From the NCBI GenBank assembly GCA_946625575.1, contig CAMOTD010000005.1, forward strand, positions 34,000-97,999: DNA of 64,000 nt, in the 5' to 3' direction. The stretch's first letter is position 1. Each line of letters begins with the position of its first letter. The DNA is from an uncultured Clostridia bacterium (GTDB lineage: Bacteria > Bacillota > Clostridia > Christensenellales > CAG-138). Under the pieces are notes generated by a model that saw only the letters and a program-made list of their open reading frames with translations, was not told the DNA's origin and did not search any database. The translations under genes and the position numbers were made by a program. Positions 1 through 62,868 of this stretch are shown here, one piece after another.

Positions 1-1395
1 CTGAATAAGTACAGCGGAGACGTTACAGATAATATTTCGACTGCCAAACGAAACGCCGGCATGAAAATATCGGCGCTCCGTTCCCAGGCTAGCAGGTACA
101 GTACGTATTCCGATAACTTGATCGGTCTAAGGGATGAATGCAAAAGCGTTGATAAAGCAGTCAAGAGCAAAGTTTCATCACTTACGGCGTCGTTTAAAAA
201 TGCCTACGGTATTCGCGACAGCAAGATCGAGAACGCTATCAACTATTTCTTTACTTCAATAGGCAATTCCACTGCGGTTGGCAGATGGATCAGTGGAGCA
301 AAGGATACTTTTAACAAGTATTCCAATTACATTAAGGACAGGATCAGGGAATGGTATAACTACGAAGGAGGGAAAGACCTGATAAAGGGAGTGCTTGTAG
401 GTTTTCTTGAGATCGCTATAGGTATTCTGTCTATCGTTGCCGCAGTTATAAGCGGCGCAGCGCTTATTGTGATAATTGCAGGAGTAATAGCCGGCGTTAT
501 CGCAGTCGCCAATGGTATTGTAAATATGTATAACGAGGGGAGAGCATATAATGCAACTCAACATGATGATCCTGCGACCGGCAAACGACTGAGCGCGGAG
601 AATACGATGCAGGATTTCCTGCGTGACGGAGATATTACGGACGAAAATGGCAGTGGGTTATTCGGCGTTAATGACCATGTCAAACTATCTCGCGGGATAG
701 CGAATACAATTGACGTTGTCAATTTTTGCTGTACTGTAATAACGGTAGTTAGCAGTGCCGGAAAGCTGCTTAAAAATGGATACAAATGGGCGACCGGAAG
801 CTCTGCTGCTCTTAAAGATATAACCATGAAAGACATTTTCTCTAAGGAATTCTTTAAGGGTATAGGATCCAAGTTCAGTAGTGGATTTAAGGATATTAAA
901 CTTGCGCTCAAGTTTAAAGATTGGTCGATAGTAAAAGACTTTGGGATTAGGCTTTTCAGTGATTTTAAATTCAACCTTAACAACAGATTCGCTAACTTTT
1001 CAGAATTTAAAAAGGGGGTTGGCACTGTAAAAAACATTTTAAGCGTTTCGAAGGATTTAATTAACGGCGGCTTTAACTTAAAGAATATAGCAAAAACGGG
1101 CTTTGAAAAGGTTGTAATACCTTGTGTGACTGTTTTTACGGTAACAAAGGATACGCCCGGTATAATTACCGGCAAAGACGGACAGTTATCATTTGATTTC
1201 TTTGATCGTGTTACCATTGATGATTTCTACGGGATCGCAGACAAGATCGGATCAAAAATAATAGGTTCGCCGGTATTTCAAAGCGAAAGCACCTTGAACG
1301 GGGGCGTGATGACCAAACTGGCTTCCTCGAGTAATATCAGCATTTCGATTCCTGAAATAACGATACCCGAGATACATGTTGAGTACGCGGTTTAG
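1..1395 (+). CDS. T7SS-associated polymorphic-toxin-like membrane protein, C-terminal part (5' end lies outside the window)
   Basis: Frame 1 is open from nt 1 (LNKYSGDV... precedes the Met at 61). A helical N-part is followed by a ~45-aa small-residue hairpin, GVLVGFLEIAIGILSIVAAVISGAALIVIIAGVIAGVIAVANGIV, with GxxxG/A spacing. Same strand and tight spacing with two WXG100 genes. Confidence 0.55.
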   Translation: MNKYSGDVTDNISTAKRNAGMKISALRSQASRYSTYSDNLIGLRDECKSVDKAVKSKVSSLTASFKNAYGIRDSKIENAINYFFTSIGNSTAVGRWISGAKDTFNKYSNYIKDRIREWYNYEGGKDLIKGVLVGFLEIAIGILSIVAAVISGAALIVIIAGVIAGVIAVANGIVNMYNEGRAYNATQHDDPATGKRLSAENTMQDFLRDGDITDENGSGLFGVNDHVKLSRGIANTIDVVNFCCTVITVVSSAGKLLKNGYKWATGSSAALKDITMKDIFSKEFFKGIGSKFSSGFKDIKLALKFKDWSIVKDFGIRLFSDFKFNLNNRFANFSEFKKGVGTVKNILSVSKDLINGGFNLKNIAKTGFEKVVIPCVTVFTVTKDTPGIITGKDGQLSFDFFDRVTIDDFYGIADKIGSKIIGSPVFQSESTLNGGVMTKLASSSNISISIPEITIPEIHVEYAV

Positions 1396-1405
1396 TTACA
1401 TAAGT

Positions 1406-1978
1406 ATGGAGCCGAACTATGTATTAAAAACGAATGAAGCGGTATTGATGCCACAAAAAGACAATAGCAAAATTCATAGAATAAAAGTAGCTGTATGGGT
1501 CATTGTCGCAGTAATTGTTATCGCCTCATTCGTGCTGGGAATAAGCGTTTTTTCTGAAATCAGCTGGACGGCACGCTGCTTGCTCATTGCTTTGGCAATT
1601 GGCACCTGCTTTATCGGCCCCAAAAGGGTTAACGTTCCATCGCCGATAGAACTGCAGTTTTTCGATGATTATCTGATACTATATCGTCCAAAACGCTACT
1701 ACAATGCCAGAGTAACAAGACGAGAGATAAACAGGATGTACTATTCAGAGATCTCAAAATGCTTGTTCAAGTCAGAGTCTCAAAGGCTGCATATTTACGG
1801 AACCGTTCATGCAAAATGGTTTAACTATAAAAAGGACGGGTCAATATGTGAAACCCCAACATATGATCGCGACGTAAAAGACACTTTGCTTTATATTAGC
1901 ACTCGATGTTCAGATGCAGATTTTGTTTCTGAGATCGAAAAACACAGTCCATTAACAGTATTAACTGAAAAAAACTAG
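1406..1978 (+). CDS. small 2-TM membrane protein, candidate immunity protein for the upstream ORF
   Basis: ORF-track 1376..1978; the Met at 1406 lies just past the upstream stop. Two hydrophobic helices (VAVWVIVAVIVIASFVLGISVF, CLLIALAIGTCFIG). Position directly after the toxin candidate. Confidence 0.45.
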   Translation: MEPNYVLKTNEAVLMPQKDNSKIHRIKVAVWVIVAVIVIASFVLGISVFSEISWTARCLLIALAIGTCFIGPKRVNVPSPIELQFFDDYLILYRPKRYYNARVTRREINRMYYSEISKCLFKSESQRLHIYGTVHAKWFNYKKDGSICETPTYDRDVKDTLLYISTRCSDADFVSEIEKHSPLTVLTEKN

Positions 1979-1989
1979 GAGGAAGAAAA

Positions 1990-3315
1990 ATGGAAATGAG
2001 CGAAACAAGGATCAATGCGCTTGATCTGAACCAGCAGGCAGCCATGCTGATTAAAACCGGTAATATTGAAGCTGCCAGAAAAAAACTCGATAGTGCTATT
2101 GAACTTGATCCCATGTTAAAGGATAGTTACAAAAACTATGGTGACCTTAATATGGCGATCAATGATTACCAGGAGGCAAAAAACAACTATAAAAAGGCTT
2201 TTCTAATTGAAAAAGATGGATTGCTGTATTTTCTGTATGGAAATGCTTGTTTCATGAAGGATGAGGTTCATGAGGGACTTGAGTATTATAATTTGGCAAT
2301 TGCCAATGGGTATGATGGCGAGGAAATGATGTTCTTCATGGGCATGGCATACGAGCACTTGAATGATGAACATATGGCACTGAGGTATTATCAGAAAGCA
2401 TGCCTAAAGAACCCCTCCAGGCCGGATTATATTGTTAAGAAGATATCGACTGAACTTCGTCTGGACATGATAGATTCCGCAGAACAGGACACAGATGAAC
2501 TGTTGAAGACGGCTCCGGAATTATACGATGGATACCATATAAAAACGCAGATCCTTATTCATAAAGGAGAGTATGATAAAGCAGCTTCCTTTGCAAAGGA
2601 GGCTTCCGATAGGTTTGCGGAGGACGCGGATCTACGGTACGATTATATTAAAGCTCTTGCTATGAAAAAGGACTTTAATACAGCGCTCACTCTAATTGAT
2701 CAAGCTGCACAGATGAAGTATTATGAGGATTCGAAGCTTCAATTCCTTATGTTAAAGGCAGAAATTCTGGCTGAGGATAATAAGTATGATGAAGCCATGG
2801 ATGTATGCAATAAGTGCATCGAATTGGAAACTGACGGTGAGATCAATAGCGAAGCCCGTTTTATGGCAATGAATTTGCACCTTGCAAAACCTGATTATGA
2901 GGAGTCTCTAAAGCAAGCGATTACATTGGTGAAGAATAATAAAGAGGATCTGTATTATTATGCCGCGTTGTATTATAAGGCATTCTGTTTAAAACAGCTT
3001 GAAAAAACTGAAGAAGCTGGTAAGGCATATAAGGAAGCTAACTCTATATATAGATTGCATACTTTAAGTAATCCCGCCGCTATCGATGTTTATCTCTACA
3101 GGGCAATGTGCCTGAAGGACCTTGAGGAATACGACAAATCTCTGGAGATACTCGACTTCATCCTTAATCTCGGCGTTGATATCGCCGAAGTTCATACTTT
3201 GAAGGCTGACGTATACGATTTGACCGGAAAGCATGGCGCAGCCGCACAGGAAAGGGAAAAAGCATATGCGCTTAAGCCCGAACTCAGGCCTGACGAGCAG
3301 AAAGCAGGTGAGTAA
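1990..3315 (+). CDS. tetratricopeptide (TPR) repeat protein
   Basis: GGAGG RBS. Repeated ~34-aa A/Y/L-patterned helices (e.g. YKNYGDLNMAINDYQEAKNNYKKAFLIE, GMAYEHLNDEHMALRYYQKACLKNP). Confidence 0.8.
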   Translation: MEMSETRINALDLNQQAAMLIKTGNIEAARKKLDSAIELDPMLKDSYKNYGDLNMAINDYQEAKNNYKKAFLIEKDGLLYFLYGNACFMKDEVHEGLEYYNLAIANGYDGEEMMFFMGMAYEHLNDEHMALRYYQKACLKNPSRPDYIVKKISTELRLDMIDSAEQDTDELLKTAPELYDGYHIKTQILIHKGEYDKAASFAKEASDRFAEDADLRYDYIKALAMKKDFNTALTLIDQAAQMKYYEDSKLQFLMLKAEILAEDNKYDEAMDVCNKCIELETDGEINSEARFMAMNLHLAKPDYEESLKQAITLVKNNKEDLYYYAALYYKAFCLKQLEKTEEAGKAYKEANSIYRLHTLSNPAAIDVYLYRAMCLKDLEEYDKSLEILDFILNLGVDIAEVHTLKADVYDLTGKHGAAAQEREKAYALKPELRPDEQKAGE

Positions 3316-3630
3316 ATGTCTCTCGCAACACAGGGAAACACAGATTTAGCGTTTAATACGGTCGATTTCAGGCAGCAGGGAGCTAAGTACGGCAATATTG
3401 CCGTATCGCTCAGAGATTTGGCAAAGCAGCTGGATGATTGCCTTACCGAATTAAAAAACAGCGGGTGGACAACTCCTGCCGGTACTGCATTCCAGAAGAT
3501 GGCTGAAACGAACTGGAAGGACAATATAAACAAGTATGCGGATTTGCTGGATACGTTAAAAGCTATTTTAGACGACGCGGCAACCAAATACGATGGTCTT
3601 AACACCAGTATTGAAGAAACAAAACTGTGA
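3316..3630 (+). CDS. WXG100-like small helical protein (EsxB or chaperone-like)
   Basis: 104 aa. ATG directly follows the TPR stop. Helix-turn-helix hairpin size with a central SGWTTPAG turn. Adjacent to an EsxA-like gene. Confidence 0.6.
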   Translation: MSLATQGNTDLAFNTVDFRQQGAKYGNIAVSLRDLAKQLDDCLTELKNSGWTTPAGTAFQKMAETNWKDNINKYADLLDTLKAILDDAATKYDGLNTSIEETKL

Positions 3631-3693
3631 ACAGGGCATTACAGCAATAGCTGATGCTATATAAAAAACAAAAAAAGAAAAGGAGAAAAAAAC

Positions 3694-3990
3694 ATGGCAA
3701 GCATTCGTGTAACCCCCGAAACTCTGAACGCTCAGGGAACTGATCTGATCGGTTATTCCAGCGATCTCGCAGACATCTTGAGCAGCATCGATTCCAAGAT
3801 CAATGAGATCATTGATGGTTGGGATGGCCTCGCTCAGGACGCATATTATGAGATGTATACCAACATGAAGCAGAGCTTGGATAAGTTCCCCGAGTTGGTA
3901 GACGCCCTTGGTCAGGCTACCGTTTCCTCTGCTGAGGCCTTCAGCAGCGTTGATGAGCAGCTCCAGAGCAGCTTCAAGTCGGCTCAGTAA
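3694..3990 (+). CDS. esxA: WXG100 family type VII secretion target (EsxA-like)
   Basis: 98 aa with a central W-D-G (WxG) motif in IIDGWDGLAQDAY and a C-terminal ...EQLQSSFKSAQ tail, as in firmicute EsxA. Strong AAGGAG RBS. Confidence 0.85.
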   Translation: MASIRVTPETLNAQGTDLIGYSSDLADILSSIDSKINEIIDGWDGLAQDAYYEMYTNMKQSLDKFPELVDALGQATVSSAEAFSSVDEQLQSSFKSAQ

Positions 3991-3998
3991 CCGATAAG

Positions 3999-4027
3999 AA
4001 AAAGGGTCCCAAGGGGCCCTTTTTTTG
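3999..4027 (+). terminator. intrinsic terminator after esxA
   Basis: AAAAAGGGTCC-CAAG-GGGCCCTTTTTTT: a GC stem flanked by an A-run and a T-run. Confidence 0.7.
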
Positions 4028-7474: not shown

Positions 7475-8037
7475 TGTCCTGTGACGGATAAAACACTGAC
7501 TTTTGGGAGTCCACAAAACTGTCCGGACGGTTCATTGTGTCCCTGTTTCCGGCTATATGTGAATTAAGCGGATTTATCGGACCAGCGGAGGAGGCGTTTG
7601 GCTTCCTCCGCCTTTTCACGCAGTATGAAATCGGTGAGTGTCTCGCCGGTCTCCTGCTTGAATTTCGCGGAAAGATACGGACGGCTCAGATAGAATTCTT
7701 CCGCCATTTTCTCCGTACTGATCGGTTCGCTTAAATGATGACGCACATAGCTCGCAATGTCGGCGGCAAGCCCGGTTGGCTGATGACCGAGATGCAGCTT
7801 TTCGACCTGTTCGGTGAATTCGAGTATCATGTTGTACTGCAGATTCATTATCTTGCCGTGCTCGGAAAGGAGCTCGACGCGCTGAATGTAGCCGTCGGAA
7901 AGCGTAAAGGCGTCCTCCTCCCTCATGCCGCCGACCTGCCGCCCGTTCTCCGCCTTTTTGCCGAAAAAGCAGTTGTTTGTTGACTCCGGGGCGCAAATGT
8001 GATAAATTACTATCGCAGGTTTATACGTAAAGCCGAT
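7475..8037 (-). pseudogene. decayed AraC-family regulator (N-terminally truncated, in-frame stop)
   Basis: ORF 7564..7926 carries the first AraC HTH (ISTEKMAEEFYLSRPYLSAKFKQETGETLTDFILREKAEEAKRLL). It ends at TAA 7564-7566. The same frame continues as ...GHNEPSGQFCGLPK..., a recognisable relic of the second HTH (GFNEPSYFCRLFK type). Upstream the frame is open only to ~8037, so most of the sensor domain is missing. Confidence 0.65.
7980..8008 (+). promoter_or_regulatory. putative promoter of the oxidoreductase-hyp operon
   Basis: TTGACT (7980-7985), 17 nt, TGa-extended TAAATT (8003-8008). Lies inside the AraC relic. Confidence 0.5.
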
Positions 8038-8065: not shown

Positions 8066-10888
8066 ATGGGCAGGAGCTTTGATGAATGGAAGATAGGCGA
8101 TCCTATGATAAACGAGCGGGACTACTGGCAGGACCCGAACTACGTTCCCGAGGATCCCGAGAAGGAAAAGCTTGTTAAAAAGCTTGCGGAGATGATAACC
8201 GACAGGGTAAAGAAAAAGCTGCTCCGCAAAATCAACAACCGCGACCCCGAATACTGGATACTTGACATGATCCTTTCCAAGGAACAGGTCAAGTTCCTTT
8301 TGAATTTCAAAAAGACGAGAGTGCCCTATTCCGTGCCCGAGCTTGCCGAGATGAACGGCATGAGCCTTGAGGACACGCAGAAAATGGTAGAGCGCCTGCG
8401 CTGGATCGGCGTCATAGAGCAGAACAGGGCCAAGACGCCCGATAAGCACCTGCAGTACGAGCTGCCGATATTCGTTCCCGGCAGCGCCGAGTTCATGATG
8501 ATGCAGGACAGGCTGACGGACGAGTTCCCGCAGCTTGCGACCTTCTTCAACCTGATGACGCAGATACCCCTCGCGGGGATCACACAGCTCGTGCCGCCCG
8601 GCGGCGCGGGCATAGGCATGCACGTTATCCCCGTTGAAAAGGCCATTTCCGCCGAGAGCAAAAGCGTGCCCGTCGAGCATATCTCCCGCTGGCTCGATAT
8701 GTACGATAAATTCGGCATTTCGGAATGCTCCTGCCGCAAGCAGCAGACCATGCGCGGTGAAGGCTCCGGCGAGATACGCGGCGATTACTGCATAGGCGTG
8801 GGCGACATGGCGGAGTACATGGACGACCGCGGCATCGGGCATTACGTAACCAAGGAAGAGGTGCTTGAGATACTCGAACGCGCCGAGCGCCACGGCTACG
8901 TGCATCAGATAACGAACATCGACGGCGAGGATAAGATCGTCGCGATCTGCAACTGCGCTCCGGGAGTGTGCAACGCGCTCCGCACGAGCCAGCTCTTCAA
9001 CACTCCCAACATGTCCGCCTCCGCCTACCGTGCGCACGTCGAAAAGGAAAAGTGCGTCGCCTGCGGAAAGTGCGTGGAGGTCTGTCCCGTTGGCGCGGCA
9101 AAGCTCGGCCGGAAGCTCTGCAAAAAGGACGGCAGCGAGGTAAAGTACCCCAAAACGCAGCTTCCGAACGGCCGCAAATGGGGCGCCGACAAATGGAATT
9201 ACAATTACCGCGAGGACGCGAAGATCAACTGCTATGAAACGGGCACCGCGCCCTGCAAGACCGCGTGCCCCGTGCATCTTTCCGTGCAGGGCTATATCAA
9301 GATGGCGTCTGAGGGCAGGTTTGACGAGGCGCTGAAGCTCATCAAACAGGATAACCCCCTGCCCATGATCTGCGGCGCTGTCTGTAACCGCCGCTGCGAG
9401 GACGCGTGCACCAGGGGCACCGTCGATCAGCCGCTCGCGATAGACGAGATAAAAAAGTTCATCGCTTCGCTCGATCTTAACAGGAAGGATCGCTACTTGC
9501 CGCTCTGCGAGAAGCACGACGGCGGTATGTGGGGCGACGAGTACAAGGTTGCCGTCATCGGCTCTGGCCCTGCGGGCCTTTCCTGCGCGTATTTCTTAAG
9601 GCGGGACGGCTATCCCGTGACCGTGTTCGAGAAGGAGCGGAGAGCGGGCGGCATGCTGGAGCACGGCATACCCTCCTACCGGCTTGAAAAGGACGTTATG
9701 CAGGCCGAGATAGACGTCATCCGCGATATGGGCGTTGAGTTCAGATTCGGCGTCGAGGTCGGTAAGGACGTGACGATAGACGATCTCCGCAAGCAGGGCT
9801 ATAAGGCGTTCTTCATTGCGATAGGCATGCAGGGCGGCCGTCTTGCCGGCGTGCCCGGCGAGGACGCGGAGGGCGTCGAAACGGGAGTGAGCTTCTTAAG
9901 GCGCATCAATAACGATCATTCCGTAAGGCTCAACGGCAGGACGGTGGTCGTGGGCGGCGGCAACGTCGCGATAGACGTTGCGGGCAGCGCTCTGCGCGCG
10001 GGCTCCGACGAGGTGACCATGTTCTGCCTCGAACAGCGGGACGAGATGCCCGCGGCGAAGGACGAGGTCGAGGAAGCCCTTGCGGACGGCGTGAAGCTCG
10101 AAAACGGCTGGGGACCCAAGGAGGTCATAAAGGAGAACGGGCGTGTCAGCGCCGTAGTATTCAAGCGATGCACAAAGGTGTATGACGAAGATCGCCGCTT
10201 CGCTCCCGAATACGACGAGAACGATACCATCACCGTCCCCTGCGATAACCTGCTGCTTTCCATAGGCCAGAGCGTGATCTGGGGCGACCTGTTAAAGGGC
10301 ACCAAGGTGGAGCTCCGCCCCAACGGAGGCGTTATTGCCGACCCCGTCACCCGCCAGACCGCCGAGCCCGATATCTTTGTCGGCGGCGACGTGTTCACGG
10401 GCGCCAGGTTCGCGATCGACGCGATAGCCGGCGGCAGAGAGGGCGCGGTATCGATCAACCGTTTTGTCCATCCCGGCAACTCACTGACCATCGCCCGCGA
10501 CCTGAGGGAATTCACGGAGCTTGACAAGAACGATATCGCCGATCCCGCCTCACAGGAGAGCTTTGACAATTCTCCCCGTCAGATACCCGGCAAAAAGGCG
10601 GGCAGAGCTTCCGCCACGTTTGAGGATCTCAGGCTCACATTTACCGAGGAGCAGGTAAAGAAGGAAGCCAAACGCTGTTTGGGCTGCGGCGCGACCACCG
10701 TGGATACCAACCGCTGCGTCGGCTGCGGCCTCTGCACCACCAAGTGCGAGTTCGACGCCATACACCTGACGCGCGACGTCCCGGCGGCGAGCAATATGTA
10801 TAAGTCCGAAGATAAGGTCAAGGCGCTGCTGCCGTACGCGGCAAAACGCGCCGTGAAGATAGTGTTCAAAAAAACCGAAGATGAATAA
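8066..10888 (+). CDS. multidomain Fe-S / FAD-NAD(P) oxidoreductase (GltD-like core with N- and C-terminal 4Fe-4S ferredoxin modules)
   Basis: CVACGKCVEVCP and CVGCGLCTTKCEFDA ferredoxin motifs. GltD/DPD-type CKTACPVHLSVQGYI...CGAVCNRRCEDACTR. Two Rossmann motifs: VAVIGSGPAGLSCAYFL and VVVGGGNVAIDVA. Confidence 0.85.
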   Translation: MGRSFDEWKIGDPMINERDYWQDPNYVPEDPEKEKLVKKLAEMITDRVKKKLLRKINNRDPEYWILDMILSKEQVKFLLNFKKTRVPYSVPELAEMNGMSLEDTQKMVERLRWIGVIEQNRAKTPDKHLQYELPIFVPGSAEFMMMQDRLTDEFPQLATFFNLMTQIPLAGITQLVPPGGAGIGMHVIPVEKAISAESKSVPVEHISRWLDMYDKFGISECSCRKQQTMRGEGSGEIRGDYCIGVGDMAEYMDDRGIGHYVTKEEVLEILERAERHGYVHQITNIDGEDKIVAICNCAPGVCNALRTSQLFNTPNMSASAYRAHVEKEKCVACGKCVEVCPVGAAKLGRKLCKKDGSEVKYPKTQLPNGRKWGADKWNYNYREDAKINCYETGTAPCKTACPVHLSVQGYIKMASEGRFDEALKLIKQDNPLPMICGAVCNRRCEDACTRGTVDQPLAIDEIKKFIASLDLNRKDRYLPLCEKHDGGMWGDEYKVAVIGSGPAGLSCAYFLRRDGYPVTVFEKERRAGGMLEHGIPSYRLEKDVMQAEIDVIRDMGVEFRFGVEVGKDVTIDDLRKQGYKAFFIAIGMQGGRLAGVPGEDAEGVETGVSFLRRINNDHSVRLNGRTVVVGGGNVAIDVAGSALRAGSDEVTMFCLEQRDEMPAAKDEVEEALADGVKLENGWGPKEVIKENGRVSAVVFKRCTKVYDEDRRFAPEYDENDTITVPCDNLLLSIGQSVIWGDLLKGTKVELRPNGGVIADPVTRQTAEPDIFVGGDVFTGARFAIDAIAGGREGAVSINRFVHPGNSLTIARDLREFTELDKNDIADPASQESFDNSPRQIPGKKAGRASATFEDLRLTFTEEQVKKEAKRCLGCGATTVDTNRCVGCGLCTTKCEFDAIHLTRDVPAASNMYKSEDKVKALLPYAAKRAVKIVFKKTEDE

Positions 10889-11579
10889 GAACGGCTTTGA
10901 TATCATAGAAGTGAGAGCTGGAATAGAGGCCGAGAACGGCCGCTTTGCCGCTCTCGTGCGCGAGTTGACGGATCGTGAGGGCGTGTTCCTTATAAACCTC
11001 ATGGCATCTCCCGGCGCCGGCAAGACGAGCGTGCTCTGCCGCGTTATCGACGCGCTGTCCGAAAGGTTCGGCGTCGGCGTGATGGAGGCGGATATGGACG
11101 CGGACGTGGACGCGCGAACAGTTGCGGAACACGGCGCCCGGGTCGTGCAGCTGCACACGGGAACCTCCTGCCACATGGACGCGAAGATGACTCTGAAAGG
11201 GCTTGAGTCCTTCAAAAAGCCCCTGCCGCAGGTGATAATACTGGAGAACGTGGGCAATCTCGTCTGCCCCGCGGAGTTTGACGTCGGCGCCGATATGCGG
11301 CTGATGATTTTGAGCGTGCCGGAGGGCGACGACAAGCCTTTAAAATATCCGCTCATGTTCACCGTGTCCGACTGGATGCTTATAAACAAGACAGATACCG
11401 CGCCCGTATTCGATTTTGATTTTACAAGATGCGAAGATAACGTCCGCACGCTCAATCCCGATATGGTCATATTCCGCGTTTCCGCCAAGACGTGCGAGGG
11501 GATCGGGGCGTTCACAAACAGGCTCGCCGAGGTCGTCTCCTCCGCGCTTTCAAAAAAGCGAAAGGGGGCGGGCGTATGA
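10881..11579 (+). CDS. hypB: HypB-type nickel-insertion GTPase, copy 1
   Basis: P-loop LMASPGAGKTS, CHMDA metal site, ENVGNLVCPAEFDVG, SVPEGDDKPLKYP, NKTD. The ATG overlaps the upstream stop (ATGAATAA). Confidence 0.85.
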   Translation: MNKNGFDIIEVRAGIEAENGRFAALVRELTDREGVFLINLMASPGAGKTSVLCRVIDALSERFGVGVMEADMDADVDARTVAEHGARVVQLHTGTSCHMDAKMTLKGLESFKKPLPQVIILENVGNLVCPAEFDVGADMRLMILSVPEGDDKPLKYPLMFTVSDWMLINKTDTAPVFDFDFTRCEDNVRTLNPDMVIFRVSAKTCEGIGAFTNRLAEVVSSALSKKRKGAGV

Positions 11580-12232
11580 AGGTGATAGAGCTTAAAATGA
11601 CTGTGACCGACTCCAACGACCGCGATGCCCAAGCCCTGCGCCGCGAGCTTTCGGAGCGGGGGATATTCCTTATCAACCTGATGAGCGCGCCCGGCAGCGG
11701 CAAGACCACCCTGCTTTCACGCACCATAACCGACCTTGCGGGCAGAGCCGATATCGCCGTTATGGAGGCAGACATCGCCTCTGACGTGGACGCGCAAAGG
11801 ATAAGCGCGCTCGGAGCGGAGAGCGTGCAGGTACACACCGACGGAATGTGCCACATGGACGCGGGAATGACCCGCATGGGGCTTGCCGGCATGGAAGGCG
11901 CAAACGGGATAGTGTTCCTCGAAAACGTGGGCAACCTCATCTGCCCTGCAGAATTCGATACCGGCGCTCACAAAAACGTGATGATACTAAGCGTGCCCGA
12001 AGGCGACGACAAGCCTTTGAAATACCCGCTGATGTTTTCCCGGAGCGACGCGCTCGTCATCACCAAAATGGACGCTTCTCCTTATTTCGATTTCGATATC
12101 GAGACCGTTGAGCGCAGGGTAAAGAAGCTCAATCCCGATATACTCATATTCCCGGTTTCCGCCAAGACGGGCGAAGGAATGGAGGCATGGGAGAGCTATA
12201 TCCTTTCGGAATGGGAAAAAAGCCATGCATGA
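11576..12232 (+). CDS. hypB: HypB-type nickel-insertion GTPase, copy 2
   Basis: LMSAPGSGKTT, CHMDA, ENVGNLICPAEFDTG, SVPEGDDKPLKYP, TKMD. The start (MKVIEL) overlaps the copy-1 stop by ATGA. Confidence 0.85.
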   Translation: MKVIELKMTVTDSNDRDAQALRRELSERGIFLINLMSAPGSGKTTLLSRTITDLAGRADIAVMEADIASDVDAQRISALGAESVQVHTDGMCHMDAGMTRMGLAGMEGANGIVFLENVGNLICPAEFDTGAHKNVMILSVPEGDDKPLKYPLMFSRSDALVITKMDASPYFDFDIETVERRVKKLNPDILIFPVSAKTGEGMEAWESYILSEWEKSHA

Positions 12233-12569
12233 GCTGAGCATAGTCAAGCACGTTATAAAAACGCTCCGCGAGGTAGCGGAGGATAATAAAGTCAGCCGCA
12301 TCGGCTCCGTCACGCTCGAGATCGGCGAGGTCTCCGGCGTGGTGATCGAGCAGCTGACCGACTGCTGGAATTATTTCCGCGATAAGGACGAGCTGGTGCG
12401 CGGCGCGCCGCTTTACGTTGAAACCGTCGAGGCCGTTACGTTCTGCACCGCCTGCGAAAAAACGTACGAAACAGTCAGGTTTGGCAGGATCTGCCCGCAC
12501 TGCGGCAGCCCTGAAACGTATTTGCTGCGGGGAAATGAGTTTTCAATAAAGCAGATCGAGGCGGAGTAA
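12225..12569 (+). CDS. hypA: HypA nickel metallochaperone
   Basis: MHELSI N-terminus (Ni site) and a CTAC...CPHC zinc-ribbon pair. 114 aa. Overlaps the hypB stop by 8 nt. Confidence 0.85.
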   Translation: MHELSIVKHVIKTLREVAEDNKVSRIGSVTLEIGEVSGVVIEQLTDCWNYFRDKDELVRGAPLYVETVEAVTFCTACEKTYETVRFGRICPHCGSPETYLLRGNEFSIKQIEAE

Positions 12570-12721: not shown

Positions 12722-12770
12722 AAAAAAGCCGCTGTGGAGTTGAAAGATACTCCATAACGGCTTTCGTTTT
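12722..12770. terminator. bidirectional intrinsic terminator
   Basis: AAAAAAGCCGCTGTGGAGT-tgaaagat-ACTCCATAACGGCTTTCGTTTT. Confidence 0.6.
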
Positions 12771-13039: not shown

Positions 13040-15967
13040 TTAAAGCTCCGGTAAAATACCGAGCGCAAAGCGCAATATCAACAGCGCGTCATTGCCGCTG
13101 ATAACGCCGTTGCCGTCGACGTCTCCGGCGAGCAGCGCCTCACCCTCGAGCGTGATAAGGCCGAGCGCGTGCCGCAGGGCGAGCAGCGCGTCGCTGCCGG
13201 TGACGACGCCGTTGAGATCGCAGTCGCCCTTGAGGAACGTTGCCCTGTCAACTTCAATTATATCGGCATTGCCGGCGTAATCGCCGACCTTTACCCAGAC
13301 CTTGTCGCGGCTGCCTACTGAAACGCTCATGCTCGTGACCGCTCCGCGGGAGTCTTCCTCGACCGCCGTCTCGGTAATCGCTGCGGTGCAGGCGGCATTG
13401 GAATACACGCCAATGAACGCGGTGTAATGGTTATCGCGGACGGAAAGCGAGAGCGTACTGCCGTCGAAAACGGAAGAGACAAGCTCGGGAGCGGTCCTGT
13501 CGACGGTGATGGGGACCTCCCACACGGCGTTCTCGTTTTCATACGGATCGAAGGGATCGAAGCTCTGCATATAACCCGTCATGCGGAGTACGCAGTGGGT
13601 GCCGTCGGGAAGGTCGTTCCCGCCCCAATGCTCGATCGCACTCCACTCTTCCGCCCCGACGGGCTGATAGAAGGAGACGAAGGTGTTCTGCACGGCCTTC
13701 GGGATGAAACGGATATCCTGCACGAAGTACTGTTCGCCGGTCTCCGCGTCGACCACCTCGTAGCGGAAGGTCTCCGCGTTGCGGAGCATATAGGTGTGCA
13801 CGAAGCCTATGCTGTCCATATTGCCGTCGCCGTTGGGGCTGAGGGAGGAACGGTCAAGCAGGAAGTTCGTTGTGGAGGCGAAGGGGTTCATGCCGAAAAG
13901 CACGTTGCTTTCGCCCATATAGGCGACTGCGCTGTTTGTGCCCCATTCGTTGGGGTAAGCATGAGTTATGCCCAGGTATTGATCGTAGTAGTTCTTGCGG
14001 TCAAACAGCGCGCCGTACTCCCAATCGCCGTAAAAGCCGAGAAAGGGCACGCTGAGATCGGTCTCGCCGTGAAGCCTCACGAAGCCGTCTATATACATGC
14101 CGAGAGGGCAGGTGGAATCTATCGTGTCCTTATAACCCGCGATATCGACAGTGACGTTTACGGTGCTTCTTCCGCCGGCGGGCACTGTCACGGAGGCGGG
14201 CGCTGTTACACTGCAGAAGGAGGTTATGTCCTCCGAGGCGTGATCCATTATGTCGACGAGGTTATAGCCTATAAGCCACATATTCACGCGCTCGGTCAGC
14301 ACCCTTGTATCGACAGTATACGTGAGCGTATGATCGCCGAAATTGACTACGTCGAAGCTGAATGAGAAGACGCCGCTCTTTGCATCGTCGTCGCCGAGCT
14401 CCAGCTTGGGGCGAAGCTCGCCGGGCACGTCGATATAGGCCTCGGTCGAGACCGCGGCGGTGAGATCCGCCTGGCCTGCGCCCTGTTGTCTGGGGCTGCA
14501 TAGCACGCCGTTCAATGCCGAGGGGCGCGCCGTGCACATGAGCAGGGTATTGACCATTTCCATGGTCTCCTGAGCGGTAAGACCGGGGAAATTCGCCTTT
14601 ACGTACTGCTTGACGAGCGCCATGCCGCCGGCAATATGCGGAGTCGCCATGCTGGTGCCGCTCTTTACGTCGTAATAACCGCCGGAATAATCGGGATCGA
14701 CCGCGGCGCTGATGCTGTCGCCCGGGGCCATTATCTCAGGCTTGATGCGAAGATCGGATGTCGTTCCCCAGCTCGAATAGCTTGCCGGGACGCAGTCTGC
14801 CTCCTTGAGGCTTGCCGCGACGGACATCGCCCCGCGAAGGCATGCGGGAGTGGAGGTGGTGCCGTTGTCGTAGTTGAAGGTGGGCGTGGTGCCGTTGAAT
14901 ATGTTGCCTCCGCCCGCAGTGCCGGCGTTGCCCGAGGCAGCGGCGACGTTCACTCCGTTTGCGGCAAGCAGCGCGAATACGTCTTCAAGATCCTCGTCGT
15001 CGGTGAAGCCGCAGTCAGCCCCGAAGCTCATATTGACGGAATCGACCTGAAGATAAGCGCAGTCCTCCAGCGCGGCGACTATATCTATCCAGTCCGCGTT
15101 GCCGCCGTTGAAGACCTGCATGGCGATCAGCTGCGCGTTGTATGCGACGCCCTTTGCGCCGGGCGCATTACCCGCGGCAATCGAGCTGACGTGAGTGCCG
15201 TGGTCGTTATAAGCATATGAATGGGAAACGTCGGTGTTGGCGGCGTAATAATTGAACGCGAAGGGTATTTTGCTGCTGCGGAAAAGGTCTTCTCCTGTCA
15301 GCGTGCCGGGATAGCGCTGCTCGGCGCAGAGCTCGTTTTCGGAAAGCACCGCGTCAATATCGGCGGCGTCAAAATGCGGCTGCTCGGGGGCGGAAGCAAA
15401 CGCCGGATGCGAGGCCAGTATTCCGGTATCTATGACGGCAATGGTCATGCCCTGGCCGGAATAGCCCAGCGCCCACATGTCGTCCGCGTTGATGAAGCCC
15501 ACGGAAGAGGCAAGCCGCTCGGCTTCGCCCTCCGCGTCGACCTCCTCCGGCAGGGTAAAGACGGGGCTGACATAGCAGTCGGCAACGCCGGGGAGCGCCT
15601 TTATGGCGTTGACGAGCCTGTATTCGCCTCTTAATGCAAAGCCGTTGAAAAGCTGAGTATAGCGGTACAGCACCTCGGCGCCTCCACGCTTCCCGTGGTC
15701 GCTCATAATGGCGTTGATGACGGAATCCTGTTCTTCAAGCAGACGGCGGCTGAGCTCGGCCGCGCGAATATCCCCGGCGGGATAATACGCAAGCGCCGGA
15801 GCGCCCTCCAGCTTGACAACGATGTTGACCTCCTCGTTAGGATCCGCCGTTAAGGCTTCCTCCGCACGGACTTCCTTCCGGGCTGCGGCAGACAGCGGAG
15901 TCACGAAGGACAGTAGAATTGCTGCCGCAAGAAGCGCAGCGGCAATACCCTTTATGCTCTTTTTCAT
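13040..15967 (-). CDS. secreted S8 (subtilisin-family) serine peptidase with C-terminal type-I dockerin
   Basis: Signal peptide MKKSIKGIAAALLAAAILLSFVTPLSAAA. Catalytic D (VIDTGILASHPAF), H (HGTHVSSIAAG) and S (GTSMATPHIAGG). The C-terminus has duplicated Ca-binding dockerin segments: GDCDLNGVVTGSDALLALR and GDVDGNGVISGNDALLILR. Confidence 0.9.
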   Translation of the reverse strand: MKKSIKGIAAALLAAAILLSFVTPLSAAARKEVRAEEALTADPNEEVNIVVKLEGAPALAYYPAGDIRAAELSRRLLEEQDSVINAIMSDHGKRGGAEVLYRYTQLFNGFALRGEYRLVNAIKALPGVADCYVSPVFTLPEEVDAEGEAERLASSVGFINADDMWALGYSGQGMTIAVIDTGILASHPAFASAPEQPHFDAADIDAVLSENELCAEQRYPGTLTGEDLFRSSKIPFAFNYYAANTDVSHSYAYNDHGTHVSSIAAGNAPGAKGVAYNAQLIAMQVFNGGNADWIDIVAALEDCAYLQVDSVNMSFGADCGFTDDEDLEDVFALLAANGVNVAAASGNAGTAGGGNIFNGTTPTFNYDNGTTSTPACLRGAMSVAASLKEADCVPASYSSWGTTSDLRIKPEIMAPGDSISAAVDPDYSGGYYDVKSGTSMATPHIAGGMALVKQYVKANFPGLTAQETMEMVNTLLMCTARPSALNGVLCSPRQQGAGQADLTAAVSTEAYIDVPGELRPKLELGDDDAKSGVFSFSFDVVNFGDHTLTYTVDTRVLTERVNMWLIGYNLVDIMDHASEDITSFCSVTAPASVTVPAGGRSTVNVTVDIAGYKDTIDSTCPLGMYIDGFVRLHGETDLSVPFLGFYGDWEYGALFDRKNYYDQYLGITHAYPNEWGTNSAVAYMGESNVLFGMNPFASTTNFLLDRSSLSPNGDGNMDSIGFVHTYMLRNAETFRYEVVDAETGEQYFVQDIRFIPKAVQNTFVSFYQPVGAEEWSAIEHWGGNDLPDGTHCVLRMTGYMQSFDPFDPYENENAVWEVPITVDRTAPELVSSVFDGSTLSLSVRDNHYTAFIGVYSNAACTAAITETAVEEDSRGAVTSMSVSVGSRDKVWVKVGDYAGNADIIEVDRATFLKGDCDLNGVVTGSDALLALRHALGLITLEGEALLAGDVDGNGVISGNDALLILRFALGILPEL

Positions 15968-59877: not shown

Positions 59878-61149
59878 ATGGCAAAATACACCCACGCAGT
59901 CACGATCGAGCCCGAAAAATGCACGGGCTGTACGACGTGCCTCCGCCGCTGTCCCACGGAAGCCATCCGCATCAGGAACAACAAGGCGGAGATCAACGCC
60001 GTCCAGTGTATCGACTGCGGCGAATGTATCAGGGTATGCAAGCATTCCGCGAAGCACGCCTCCTACGATAAGCTCTCCGACCTGGATTTCTCCAAGTATC
60101 TCATCGCGCTGCCCGCGCCTTCGCTGTTCGGGCAATTCAATCATCTGACAGAGGCGGATTTCGTTATCCAGGGTCTTAAGGACATGGGCTTCTCCGAAGT
60201 CTATGAGGTCGCCAAAGCAGCCGAGTACGTTACGGATCTCACAAGGATCTATCTTAACGGCGACAAGGCGATCAAGCCCGCGATCAGCTCCGCCTGCCCC
60301 GTCGTGGTAAGGCTCATAAAGCTCAGGTATCCCACCCTGTGCGAACAGCTCGTTCCCATAATGCCGCCGTACGAACTTGCGGGCAAGCTCGCAAGGGAGA
60401 AGGCGATAAAGGAGCATCCCGAGATCGATCCCGAAAACATCAAAACGGTGTTCATCTCCCCGTGCCCCGCAAAGGTGAGCTGGGCGAAGAGCGTTATGGA
60501 GGGGCAAACCGTCTACGTCGACTACATCACCTCAATGAACGACGTCTATATGGAGCTTCTCGCAAGGATGAAGCGCGACAACGTTCCCGGGGCGGATTCC
60601 GCATCGGAGGCGGGCGTCGTCGGCATAGGCTGGGCAACCACCGGAGGAGAGGCGGCCTCCCTTATGAACGAAGGGTACCTTTCCGCGGACGGTATAGACA
60701 ACGTTATAAAAGTGCTTGACGATCTTGAGAGCGGCACCGTCAGCGATATCAGCTTCGTTGAGCTGAACGCGTGCAGCCCCGGCTGCGTCGGCGGCGTGCT
60801 TGCGCCGACGAACGGCTACATTGCAAGGGTGCGGCTCCAGAACCTCAGGAAGATCGGCGGTCTTGTCGTCAAACCCAACAATATCGGCGACATAGACGAG
60901 AACGTGGGCAAGGGCGATATTCCCGCCGAATACACCGAGGCGGAAGCCTTCACCTATATGCCCGAGGGCGCGCCGAACATGCTCGCCATGATGCTCGCGA
61001 TGAAGAAAGCCGAAGCGCTGGCAGACAAGCTCCCCAAAAAGGACTGCGGCGCCTGCGGCTCGCCCACTTGCAGGGCGTTCGCGCTGGACGTCGTAAACGG
61101 CGAAGCAAAGCTTGAGGACTGCAAGATCAGACCTCAGATGGAGGGGTAA
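59878..61149 (+). CDS. [FeFe]-hydrogenase-like (HydS-type, putative sensory) protein with N-terminal 2x[4Fe-4S] and C-terminal Cys motif
   Basis: CTGCTTCLRRCP and CIDCGECIRVC. H-cluster-like motifs SSACPVV, SPCPAKV and ACSPGCVGG. C-terminal CGACGSPTCRAF. Confidence 0.75.
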   Translation: MAKYTHAVTIEPEKCTGCTTCLRRCPTEAIRIRNNKAEINAVQCIDCGECIRVCKHSAKHASYDKLSDLDFSKYLIALPAPSLFGQFNHLTEADFVIQGLKDMGFSEVYEVAKAAEYVTDLTRIYLNGDKAIKPAISSACPVVVRLIKLRYPTLCEQLVPIMPPYELAGKLAREKAIKEHPEIDPENIKTVFISPCPAKVSWAKSVMEGQTVYVDYITSMNDVYMELLARMKRDNVPGADSASEAGVVGIGWATTGGEAASLMNEGYLSADGIDNVIKVLDDLESGTVSDISFVELNACSPGCVGGVLAPTNGYIARVRLQNLRKIGGLVVKPNNIGDIDENVGKGDIPAEYTEAEAFTYMPEGAPNMLAMMLAMKKAEALADKLPKKDCGACGSPTCRAFALDVVNGEAKLEDCKIRPQMEG

Positions 61150-61183
61150 TACCCGCCGATACCAACACAAAGGGAGAAGAAAA

Positions 61184-61570
61184 ATGCTTACTGTGGAACA
61201 GCTTGCAGAAAGGCTCGGCCTTGACGTTATAGAGCTTCCCGAGCCCGACCGTGAGATCACGGGCGGCTATGCCGGGGATCTATTAAGCTGGGTAATGGGC
61301 CGCGCGCAGGCGGGGGACGCATGGGTGACTATAATGTCCAACATGAACGTTTCCGCCGTCGCACAGCTTACGGACGTCGCCTGCGTCGTATTCGCGGAGG
61401 GCGTCGCCCCCGATAAGGAGGCGCTCAATAAAGCGAGGATGCACGGCATCAACATGCTGGGAAGCAAAAAGGGCATTTTCGAGCTCTGCGGTCAGATCGC
61501 GTTTTTGATGCGCGGCAACGAGGCTTCCGCTGAAGAAGTCTTTGAGGCAAGCCCCGAGGCAAGCGACTGA
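61184..61570 (+). CDS. DRTGG-domain protein (second copy)
   Basis: Start at MLTVEQ (GGGAGAAG RBS). ...GGYAGDLLSWVMGRAQAGDAWVTIMSNMNVSAVAQL... Confidence 0.7.
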   Translation: MLTVEQLAERLGLDVIELPEPDREITGGYAGDLLSWVMGRAQAGDAWVTIMSNMNVSAVAQLTDVACVVFAEGVAPDKEALNKARMHGINMLGSKKGIFELCGQIAFLMRGNEASAEEVFEASPEASD

Positions 61571-61585
61571 AAGGAAAAGGAAGGC

Positions 61586-62317
61586 ATGGCACTCTTTACC
61601 TACGATCTGCACGTTCATTCCTGTCTGTCCCCCTGCGGCGACGACGAGATGACTCCATGCAATATCGCGGGTATGGCGTTCCTTGCGGGAGTCAGGATCG
61701 TAGCTCTTACGGATCATAACTCCTGCAAAAACTGCGGCGCCTTCTTCGCCGCCTGCGAGGAATACGGGGTCGTCCCCGTCGCGGGATGCGAATTGACCAC
61801 TTCCGAAGAAATACACATGGTCTGCCTGTTTGAAGGCCTGAAACAGGCGATGGATTTCGACGAGGCTATACAGCCCTATCGGATGAAGCTCAAGAACCGT
61901 GTGGAAATATTCGGCAATCAATTCATAATGGCGAAGGATGACGAGATCACGGGTCAGGACCCATGGTTCCTGCCCGCGGCGACCGGGCTTTCGCTCCTTG
62001 AAGCGGCCGAGCTTGTAAGAAGTATGGGCGGCGTCGCCTACCCTGCGCATATAGACAGGGAGTCGAACGGGATGCTCGCCATACTCGGCATGTTCCCCGA
62101 TGAGCCGGTATTCGAACTTTGTGAGGTAAGGGATAAGGAAAACGCCGAAAAGCTTTCCGGCGGAAGGCGGGTGGTGGTCTCCTCCGACGCCCACAGGCTG
62201 GAGGATTTCGCCGTAACGCTCAACCATATGGAGCTTGACTGCGATCCCGAAGCTTCTCCCGATGAGATCAGGCACGCACTTTTTGAAAAGCTTAATATGA
62301 AGGAGGCAGGGAAATGA
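61586..62317 (+). CDS. PHP-domain phosphoesterase
   Basis: YDLHVHSCLSPCGDDEMTP...IVALTDHNS...AYPAHIDRE...SSDAH. Confidence 0.8.
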   Translation: MALFTYDLHVHSCLSPCGDDEMTPCNIAGMAFLAGVRIVALTDHNSCKNCGAFFAACEEYGVVPVAGCELTTSEEIHMVCLFEGLKQAMDFDEAIQPYRMKLKNRVEIFGNQFIMAKDDEITGQDPWFLPAATGLSLLEAAELVRSMGGVAYPAHIDRESNGMLAILGMFPDEPVFELCEVRDKENAEKLSGGRRVVVSSDAHRLEDFAVTLNHMELDCDPEASPDEIRHALFEKLNMKEAGK

Positions 62318-62868
62318 AGGAATTGTCCTTGAATATCCTCGATATCGCTCAGAATTCCATACACGCCGAAGCGACCCTCGTCGAGATACTCCTTTACGAG
62401 ACGGAGGAGAGCCTTAAGCTTTCCATAATCGACGATGGCAGGGGCATGAGCGAGGAATTCCTCCAAAGGGTCACCGACCCGTTCTCCACCACCCGCACGA
62501 CGAGGAAAGTCGGCATGGGGCTCCCGCTTTTGAAGCTCGCCGCCGAACAGACCGGCGGGTACATGGAGATCACCTCGAAGGAGCGCGCGCTCTGGCCGGA
62601 TGACCACGGCACCTGCGTCACCGCCTTCTTCTACAAAAACCACCTTGATTTCACCCCCCTCGGGGACGTCATATCGACGGTGGTATCGCTCGTGCAGGGC
62701 AGTCCCGACGTGGACTTCCGCTTTGTGCATGAGCTGCCCGACCGCACAGTCGAGCTCGATACGCGCGAGCTTCGCGAGGTGCTGGGGGACGATATCCCCC
62801 TATCCTCTCCCGAGATACTCGTGTGGATCCGCTCCTCGCTCATGGAGCAGTACGGAGAGGGCGAATGA
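62314..62868 (+). CDS. GHKL ATPase-domain protein (HATPase_c)
   Basis: LNILDIAQNSIHA (N box), IIDDGRGM (G1), TRKVGMGLPLLK (G2). ATGA overlap with the PHP gene. Confidence 0.75.
   Translation: MKELSLNILDIAQNSIHAEATLVEILLYETEESLKLSIIDDGRGMSEEFLQRVTDPFSTTRTTRKVGMGLPLLKLAAEQTGGYMEITSKERALWPDDHGTCVTAFFYKNHLDFTPLGDVISTVVSLVQGSPDVDFRFVHELPDRTVELDTRELREVLGDDIPLSSPEILVWIRSSLMEQYGEGE

Follow-up and report, generated by a model that had tools for sequence, protein, structure and literature searches.

Why would two genes for HypB and one for HypA be coupled by overlapping codons to the gene of a large Fe-S flavoprotein, in a genome where profile searches found no [NiFe]-hydrogenase? HypA and HypB are the chaperones that deliver nickel to [NiFe]-hydrogenase in E. 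coli and Thermococcus and to urease in Helicobacter pylori. The question is raised by a stretch of 64,000 nucleotides (hereafter the window; contig CAMOTD010000005.1, positions 34,000 to 97,999) from an uncultured Clostridia bacterium of the order Christensenellales. At positions 8066-12569 of the window, four open reading frames (ORFs) on the same strand encode a 940-aa oxidoreductase, two HypB-like proteins, and one HypA-like protein:

8066..10888, + strand: IsrA-family Fe-S flavoprotein, 940 aa (from the translation, Pfam, an AlphaFold 2 (AF2) model, and rumen homologues with 77-100% identity)
10881..11579, + strand: hypB1, a G3E GTPase of clade B1 with NKxD (from TIGR00073 at 221.7 bits, the overlap, the tree, and motifs)
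11576..12232, + strand: hypB2, a G3E GTPase of clade B2 with TKxD (from TIGR00073 at 234.0 bits, the overlap, the tree, and motifs)
12225..12569, + strand: hypA, a nickel metallochaperone with an MHE N-terminus and a CxxC...CxxC zinc site (from Pfam HypA at 107.6 bits)

The operon probably combines an IsrA-family flavoprotein with its own metal-insertion chaperones. The earlier note on this DNA thought that such maturation of the oxidoreductase would be new. However, the IsrA-HypAB association, together with a nickel proposal for a six-cysteine (Cys6) site, was already published in 2023 (Kronen et al. 2023, PMC10134865). IsrA is the putative isoprene reductase of Acetobacterium wieringae, a protein of 901 aa with an unannotated stretch of ~270 residues at its start, an Nfn-like core, two pairs of canonical [4Fe-4S] clusters, and a hypothesised Cys6 "cluster V" with the CxC motifs Cys180/182 and Cys254/256. 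The isr operon has two hypA genes, one hypB gene, and a ferredoxin gene in a host genome without a [NiFe]-hydrogenase, and its hyp genes are transcribed and translated alongside the oxidoreductase according to reverse-transcription PCR and proteomics. Among 988 IsrA homologues, HypA is encoded within five genes in 73% and HypB in 56%. It was proposed that IsrA is a nickel client and that cluster V, which was compared with double-cubane and P-type clusters and with the A-cluster of acetyl-CoA synthase (ACS), is the nickel site (PMC10134865). Butyrivibrio and rumen taxa are not listed in the supplementary files of that study. In two preprints of 2026 on Pelotomaculum, IsrA is still regarded as lacking biochemical characterisation. 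For the present locus, the hypothesis that the chaperones serve the oxidoreductase is well supported by comparative genomics.

Does the genome hold another nickel enzyme? Profile searches of this metagenome-assembled genome (2.02 Mb, 79% complete) returned no NiFeSe_Hases, Complex1_49kDa, Prismane/carbon monoxide dehydrogenase (CODH), urease alpha, HypC, HypD, or LarA. With PF00374, PF00346, PF01924, and PF01455 all unmatched, no complete [NiFe]-hydrogenase maturation system was detected. The hyp genes found, a single hypA and two hypB, are all those of the operon. The earlier note had seen no hypCDEF, [NiFe]-hydrogenase, CODH, urease, or lar genes in the 64 kb, and the genome-wide searches for the families just listed found none of those either. 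I then compared 42 genomes carrying the oxidoreductase gene, namely 24 genomes (G000-G022 and G041) and 18 Butyrivibrio-type genomes. In the 24, PF00374 ([NiFe] large subunit) and PF01924 (HypD) never rose above the cut-off, and HypB is kept in every one of these hydrogenase-free genomes, each time beside an IsrA-type gene (24/24 for both). A Prismane-family match occurs in three of them and a convincing urease in none (0/24); the candidates in G002 and G004 were rejected as borderline partial matches of 24-26 bits that resemble other amidohydrolases. Such an inventory, which the earlier note had suggested, thus reveals no [NiFe]-hydrogenase, CODH, or urease in this genome, nor in the majority of the other 23 with a hyp-IsrA locus. 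These results showed that in genomes without a [NiFe]-hydrogenase the hyp chaperones are kept only beside an IsrA-type enzyme.

An independent sample of 151 genomes was drawn evenly from the same order; their relatedness makes the following counts descriptive rather than a statistical test. HypB scored above the cut-off in 24 of the 151. In 16 of these 24 genomes, hypB lies within ~1 kb of a full-length IsrA-like gene and no [NiFe] match was found (0/16); the other eight all have a [NiFe] match (8/8). This adds comparative support to the published association: across the order, each genome with HypB has either a [NiFe]-hydrogenase or an IsrA-type gene next to hypB. In the same sample, the window's own family is represented by five genomes, all of them without the oxidoreductase and without hypB, though both are present in more distant families. 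Thus, the cassette is patchy and probably moves horizontally among rumen bacteria.

Is the gene order conserved? Homologues of the oxidoreductase with 77-100% identity were found in rumen and gut Clostridia, Oscillospiraceae, Lachnospiraceae (including Butyrivibrio), Anaerovoracaceae, Erysipelotrichaceae, and Chloroflexota. By tblastn, 25 of 83 loci have the order oxidoreductase-hypB-hypB-hypA, three of the 25 being near-identical to the window. The 25 loci belong to Clostridia, Oscillospiraceae, Lachnospiraceae, Anaerovoracaceae, and Chloroflexota, and their flanking genes vary. Other loci have a single hypB or a hypB-hypA pair 5′ of the oxidoreductase gene, and ~50 Butyrivibrio/Lachnospiraceae loci have no hyp gene adjoining it. 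Since the arrangement was found again at 25 independent loci, it is not due to chance. The earlier note named two findings that together would speak against the link, a hydrogenase or CODH lacking its own hypAB and a synteny unique to this strain. Neither was found: the synteny is kept across Bacillota and Chloroflexota.

In a FastTree phylogeny of the oxidoreductases, rooted on paralogues and read for its topology without support values, the unlinked Lachnospiraceae copies are basal and the hyp-linked copies form one derived clade of Clostridia and Chloroflexota. Three copies in this clade show no neighbouring hyp gene. Two of them sit at the end of a contig, and one is that of G041, which has a paralogue cluster with the gene order hypB, IsrA paralogue, hypA, and DUF5692. 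Between Clostridia and Chloroflexota, identity is 82-83% for the oxidoreductase, ~71% for HypB2, ~61% for HypA, and ~57% for HypB1. A single derived hyp-linked clade spanning phyla fits a gene that moves together with its chaperones, which it seems to bring along where the host lacks them.

HypD and an Ech-like large subunit were both found in the 18 Butyrivibrio-type genomes. In Butyrivibrio hungatei (G031), which has two IsrA-type paralogues, the close homologue of the window protein stands alone. The sole hypB of this genome lies in a DUF5692-hypB-hypA cluster (L084:2912-8103, contig C7), which is followed by the second paralogue, a protein of 961 aa that is 55% identical to the window protein. 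Because the only hypB sits beside this paralogue, ~54 kb from the ech and hypD genes, one HypAB set may serve the Ech hydrogenase as well as both flavoproteins. The hypB neighbourhood was opened in this Butyrivibrio genome alone; the other Butyrivibrio genomes have a single HypB each, which clusters tightly with that of G031 in the HypB tree.

What kind of protein would be the client? The following features were recognised in the flavoprotein:

8264..8473, + strand: winged-helix subdomain, aa 67-136, aligned by VIA-align to MarR/ArsR-type winged helices, with no Pfam match
8726..8971, + strand: Cys6 site, aa 221-302 (C221-x-C223, C242, C295-x-C297, and C302), a candidate nickel or unusual Fe-S site
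9053..9085, + strand: canonical ferredoxin motif CxxCxxCxxxC, aa 330-340, conserved and matched by Pfam Fer4, between the Cys6 site and the flavoprotein core
9227..10471, + strand: NfnB/GltD-like core, aa 388-802, with two [4Fe-4S] clusters (Fer4_20) and FAD and NAD(P)H Rossmann folds, from Pfam, the PDB, and Foldseek
10676..10747, + strand: C-terminal ferredoxin-type cysteine motifs, aa 871-894, from the Cys positions aligned to FwdF-type polyferredoxin repeats

Pfam recognises Fer4 (aa 325-344), Fer4_20 (aa 388-470), and Pyr_redox_2 (aa 493-789), and matches nothing within aa 1-320. In the PDB, the core sequence matches 9bov_A, 8oh5_C, 9n5u_A, and 5jca_L, and Foldseek matches it to NfnB, NfnC, and StnC at E-values of 5e-42 to 1e-31. 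The AF2 model of the protein has a predicted local distance difference test score (pLDDT) of 88 and a predicted template modelling score (pTM) of 0.90. An identity as GltD, YgfK, or AegA was not obtained at the equivalog level, since every NCBIfam match is far under its cut-off (425 vs 516 for PRK12771, 284 vs 472 for gltA, and 301 vs 835 for YgfK).

In the N-terminal domain, VIA-align recognised only residues 67-136 as a winged helix (Z 8-9.3, root-mean-square deviation ~2 Å over 60-66 residues), the remainder having no clear solved relative in these searches. A Foldseek search of the domain gave nothing at E <= 0.001, although it barely tested the Cys6 subdomain (~180-320). In 28 full-length homologues and 31 N-domain homologues, with identity as low as 27-29%, each of the six cysteines is either invariant or retained in 90% or more of the sequences. 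H280, N296, and R306 are conserved along with them. R224 never varies in the full-length set and is retained in 90% or more of the N-domain set. The two CxC motifs of the window protein are 74 residues apart, as are Cys180/182 and Cys254/256 of IsrA. The protein is thus filed, on this spacing and on the shared architecture, in the IsrA family ("clade 9" oxidoreductases), to which it belongs as judged from the published description of IsrA. Three features of the family were found here, namely a Cys6 N-domain, an NfnB/GltD-like module with ferredoxin clusters, and hypA and hypB nearby without a [NiFe]-hydrogenase. The protein is also homologous to ~900-aa proteins encoded beside hypB that are IsrA-like in length.

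A stand-alone form of the N-terminal domain was found in the genome G108 (L120:310-3377, contig C1). It is a 365-aa protein consisting of the N-domain and a ferredoxin part (26% identity) and resembling the 350-aa "ferredoxin" of the isr operon. It has its own hypA-hypB pair, and a second, separate hypB lies near the [NiFe]-hydrogenase of this genome. A stand-alone N-domain with its own hypA-hypB points to the N-terminal domain as the client of the chaperones.

Are the three Hyp proteins still competent? HypB1 and HypB2 score 221.7 and 234.0 bits against an equivalog cut-off of 121.2 (NCBIfam TIGR00073). Translations and an alignment of orthologues bear out what the earlier note had read from the letters: both copies keep the P-loop, the CH metal motif, and ENVGNL(V/I)CPAEFD, and both lack a His-rich N-terminus. 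The TKMD that it saw in copy 2 in place of NKxD is no peculiarity of this strain, since TKxD is found throughout clade B2. HypA keeps MHE and the two CxxC pairs, again as noted before, and these are invariant in 19 orthologues. It scores 107.6 bits against Pfam PF01155 (cut-off 28.9) and 79.8 against NCBIfam TIGR00100, below the equivalog cut-off of 88.1, and is thus a divergent HypA. A weak HypA-like match in a 938-aa frame on contig C16 was rejected; this frame starts like a class I aminoacyl-tRNA synthetase (HMGH; valyl-tRNA synthetase-like) and has no significant similarity to the operon proteins.

A quick IQ-TREE phylogeny of 97 HypB sequences was made with SH-like approximate likelihood ratio test (SH-aLRT) support values. 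One clade (support 98) takes in all the IsrA-linked HypBs and the Butyrivibrio HypBs, and the HypBs of the order's hydrogenase-bearing genomes fall outside the IsrA-linked clade. The first-position copies form clade B1 (support 95) and the second-position copies clade B2 (support 98). The main groupings within B1 match those within B2, and the catalytic and metal motifs are all kept in both clades. The earlier note had left it undecided whether the duplication was recent. It was revealed that the copies fall into two old, well-supported clades, and since these clades are position-specific, the duplication is old. HypB acts as a dimer with nickel at the interface, so it is a reasonable inference that HypB1 and HypB2 form a heterodimer.

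The pair B1 and B2 has a relative outside the IsrA-linked loci. In a Lachnospiraceae genome (XBD2001, G039), a hypB1-hypB2 tandem follows hypD and hypE beside an Ech-type [NiFe] large subunit (L085:6337-9856), and this pair is basal to B1 and B2 in the HypB tree. No hypA was detected in the 12-kb stretch that holds it. A GGDEF gene comes after the tandem. A probable history is that the HypB pair originated among hydrogenase maturation genes and was only later recruited.

How might the parts work together? A HypB1/HypB2 heterodimer would hold nickel, in a GTP-dependent manner, at the interface formed by the CH motifs and would hand it to the MHE site of HypA, which in turn would insert it into, or beside, the flavoprotein's Cys6 site. 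Electrons would pass from NAD(P)H to FAD, along the [4Fe-4S] chain, and on to the Ni/Fe-S site, where a hard-to-reduce substrate would be hydrogenated; by analogy with isoprene, this would most likely be an unactivated or conjugated C=C bond. Both the nickel content of the enzyme and the role of Cys6 in this scheme I infer. A complex prediction for residues 1-400 of the oxidoreductase with HypA returned 0.00, the "no answer" of the tool, which speaks neither for nor against binding.

Several points weigh against a nickel-dependent flavoprotein with dedicated chaperones. The pair in G039 demonstrates that B1 and B2 are not exclusive to IsrA-type enzymes; as it lies in an ech-hypD-hypE cluster, the pair is ordinary hydrogenase-type machinery that could serve another client. 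Metal analysis or a bench test of any IsrA-family member was not found in the literature, and the window protein was compared with IsrA by its published description rather than sequence to sequence. NicO/CbiM nickel transporters were not found in the genome, a result that its 79% completeness makes uninformative, and ABC-type Nik transporters were not searched for. Zinc is bound by HypB as well as by a structural site in HypA; thus the identity of the delivered metal is not established. It is therefore imaginable, though unlikely, that the chaperones serve the flavoprotein with zinc, cobalt, or iron, or help to build an unusual Fe-S cluster at Cys6. Their zinc binding and the missing NicO/CbiM would suit this, as would the all-cysteine, Fe-S-like character of Cys6, since cluster V was likened to double-cubane and P-type clusters as well as to the ACS A-cluster (PMC10134865). 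However, the nickel-bridging CH motif of both HypBs and the MHE of HypA are invariant in the orthologues, and the basal HypB pair lies in a genuine [NiFe]-hydrogenase maturation cluster.

The earlier note had offered two readings, of which the one with chaperones serving the oxidoreductase is better supported by the inventory and the synteny. The other, in which the hyp genes are general nickel chaperones for some unrecognised nickel enzyme and merely happen to lie here, is improbable. A client could have escaped assembly in a 79%-complete genome, the Prismane-family gene in three of the 24 comparison genomes is possibly a CODH, and the HypB pair of G039 does sit in a hydrogenase cluster. Against incidental adjacency, all 16 hydrogenase-free HypB genomes of the order sample have it, and 25 loci across phyla share the order among unrelated flanking genes and with overlapping start and stop codons. 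Moreover, CODH, ACS, and lactate racemase have chaperones of their own, namely CooC, AcsF, and LarC/LarE; the same argument was made by Kronen et al. (PMC10134865). That the hyp genes are a decaying, functionless remnant of a lost [NiFe]-hydrogenase system was rejected as highly improbable. It would account for the failure to find hypCDEF and hydrogenase structural genes, but the three genes are intact, all catalytic and metal motifs are conserved in dozens of genomes diverged to 50-60% identity, and the overlapping, coupled frames are maintained across phyla.

The coupling itself could be followed to the nucleotide. The stop codon of the oxidoreductase gene overlaps with the start codon of hypB1 by 8 nt (ATGAATAA at 10881-10888), hypB1 and hypB2 share ATGA at 11576-11579, and hypB2 runs 8 nt into hypA (ATGCATGA at 12225-12232), all as the earlier note had described. 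Its choice of start for hypB2 also stands, since ATG at 11576, and not the GTG at 11492 given by the ORF lister, aligns with the orthologues. Two candidate control elements border the genes:

7980..8008, + strand: promoter-like site, TTGACT, a 17-nt spacer, and TAAATT, with TG before the -10, from a consensus scan (pattern match only)
12727..12770, + strand: intrinsic-terminator-like hairpin with a U-rich tract, ~160 nt past hypA, from sequence and RNA folding

The promoter-like site is 58 nt 5′ of the oxidoreductase start, inside an AraC relic on the opposite strand. The hairpin was overlooked by the consensus scan because its stem contains a mismatch; in RNA folding it reaches -22.5 kcal/mol with a z-score of -5.0, and none of 200 shuffles was equally stable. 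With this site upstream, the hairpin downstream, and all three junctions overlapping, the four genes look like a single transcription unit, in line with the earlier proposal of one coupled operon.

The neighbours of the operon are unrelated to it, namely an M42 peptidase gene, an AraC fragment, and a dockerin-bearing subtilase gene. The AraC-family fragment (7564-7926, - strand) has 120 aa with a partial helix-turn-helix region, and the promoter-like site lies just beyond it. The subtilase gene (13040-15967, - strand), convergent with the operon, encodes 975 aa with an Fn3-like domain and a type I dockerin. The G+C content of the window is 0.41-0.43 in the first 4 kb (1-4000) and 0.53-0.60 thereafter, a sharp break in composition. 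The hydrogenase seen earlier at 58-64 kb is of the [FeFe] type as stated, the gene at 59878-61149 having an [FeFe]-hydrogenase large-subunit domain. Its product is a 423-aa protein with Fe_hyd_lg_C and a PF04060 Fe-S domain; in this region (59878-62868), PHP-domain and HATPase_c genes come after it, and NuoE/NuoF-like genes flank. This short [FeFe]-hydrogenase may be sensory or regulatory rather than catalytic.

What would the locus mean? If HypAB supply the IsrA family with nickel, this would be a new class of nickel enzyme and the second non-hydrogenase client of Hyp proteins, after Helicobacter urease. Specific to this locus are the downstream hypB1-hypB2-hypA order, the old HypB pair, the conserved rumen subclade, and the complementary arrangement in Butyrivibrio. 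Members of the rumen subclade share 77-100% identity across Bacillota and Chloroflexota, and one is present in every Butyrivibrio genome examined. Given how very widespread and highly conserved the subclade is, the rumen probably holds plenty of its substrate. Biohydrogenation is classically associated with Butyrivibrio. As a speculation with a small chance of being right, which draws on analogy, the subclade could be a nickel-dependent, hydrogenating enzyme for unactivated or conjugated C=C bonds in plant lipids or terpenes, such as a long-sought reductase that hydrogenates fatty acids in the rumen; its maturation would require a HypB1/HypB2 heterodimer together with HypA. A reaction of this kind, reduction of an unfunctionalised diene, has been attributed to IsrA. 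No feature of the window ties the oxidoreductase gene to lipids. In any case, the locus is a compact four-gene cassette suited to expression tests.

Among known systems, IsrA is the nearest. Both proteins are ~900 aa in length (940 aa here vs 901 aa) and have an unannotated N-domain of ~270-320 aa, a Cys6 site with a CxC pair 74 residues apart, an NfnB/GltD-like FAD/NAD(P)H core, and additional ferredoxin clusters. Both operons bring hypA and hypB together in a host in which neither a [NiFe]-hydrogenase nor hypCDEF was found. They differ in composition, since the window has two HypBs and one HypA, all downstream, whereas the isr operon has two HypAs, one HypB, and a 350-aa ferredoxin. In addition, the N-domain is only ~30-36% identical to those of the homologues of IsrA length (~900 aa), and isoprene, the substrate attributed to IsrA, would apply to the window protein by analogy only.

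For the core, the closest relatives of known structure are NfnB and NfnC/StnC of the electron-bifurcating NfnABC/StnABC complexes (PDB 9bov, 8oh5, 9n5u, 5jca, and 4ylf), to which residues ~331-877 align with 32-38% identity in a common FAD/NAD(P)H and [4Fe-4S] layout. Unlike the window locus, these have neither a winged-helix/Cys6 N-terminal domain nor nickel chaperones, and the formate-dehydrogenase-like C-terminal part of StnC and NfnC is missing from the window protein. CODH/ACS with CooC and AcsF shares the concept of a nucleotide-hydrolysing chaperone that puts nickel in or beside a Cys-held Fe-S cluster. This is an analogy only, since the folds are unrelated to the window protein and the chaperones are of the MinD/ParA class rather than G3E GTPases like HypB. 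The classical HypAB of E. coli, Thermococcus, and H. pylori differ from those of the window in that no hydrogenase, urease, HypC, HypD, HypE, or HypF was found here and in that two diverged HypB paralogues, both without a His-rich or high-affinity N-terminal site, replace the homodimer. Nevertheless, both sets belong to common chaperone families and share their metal and GTPase motifs, and H. pylori HypAB provides the precedent for a client that is not a hydrogenase.

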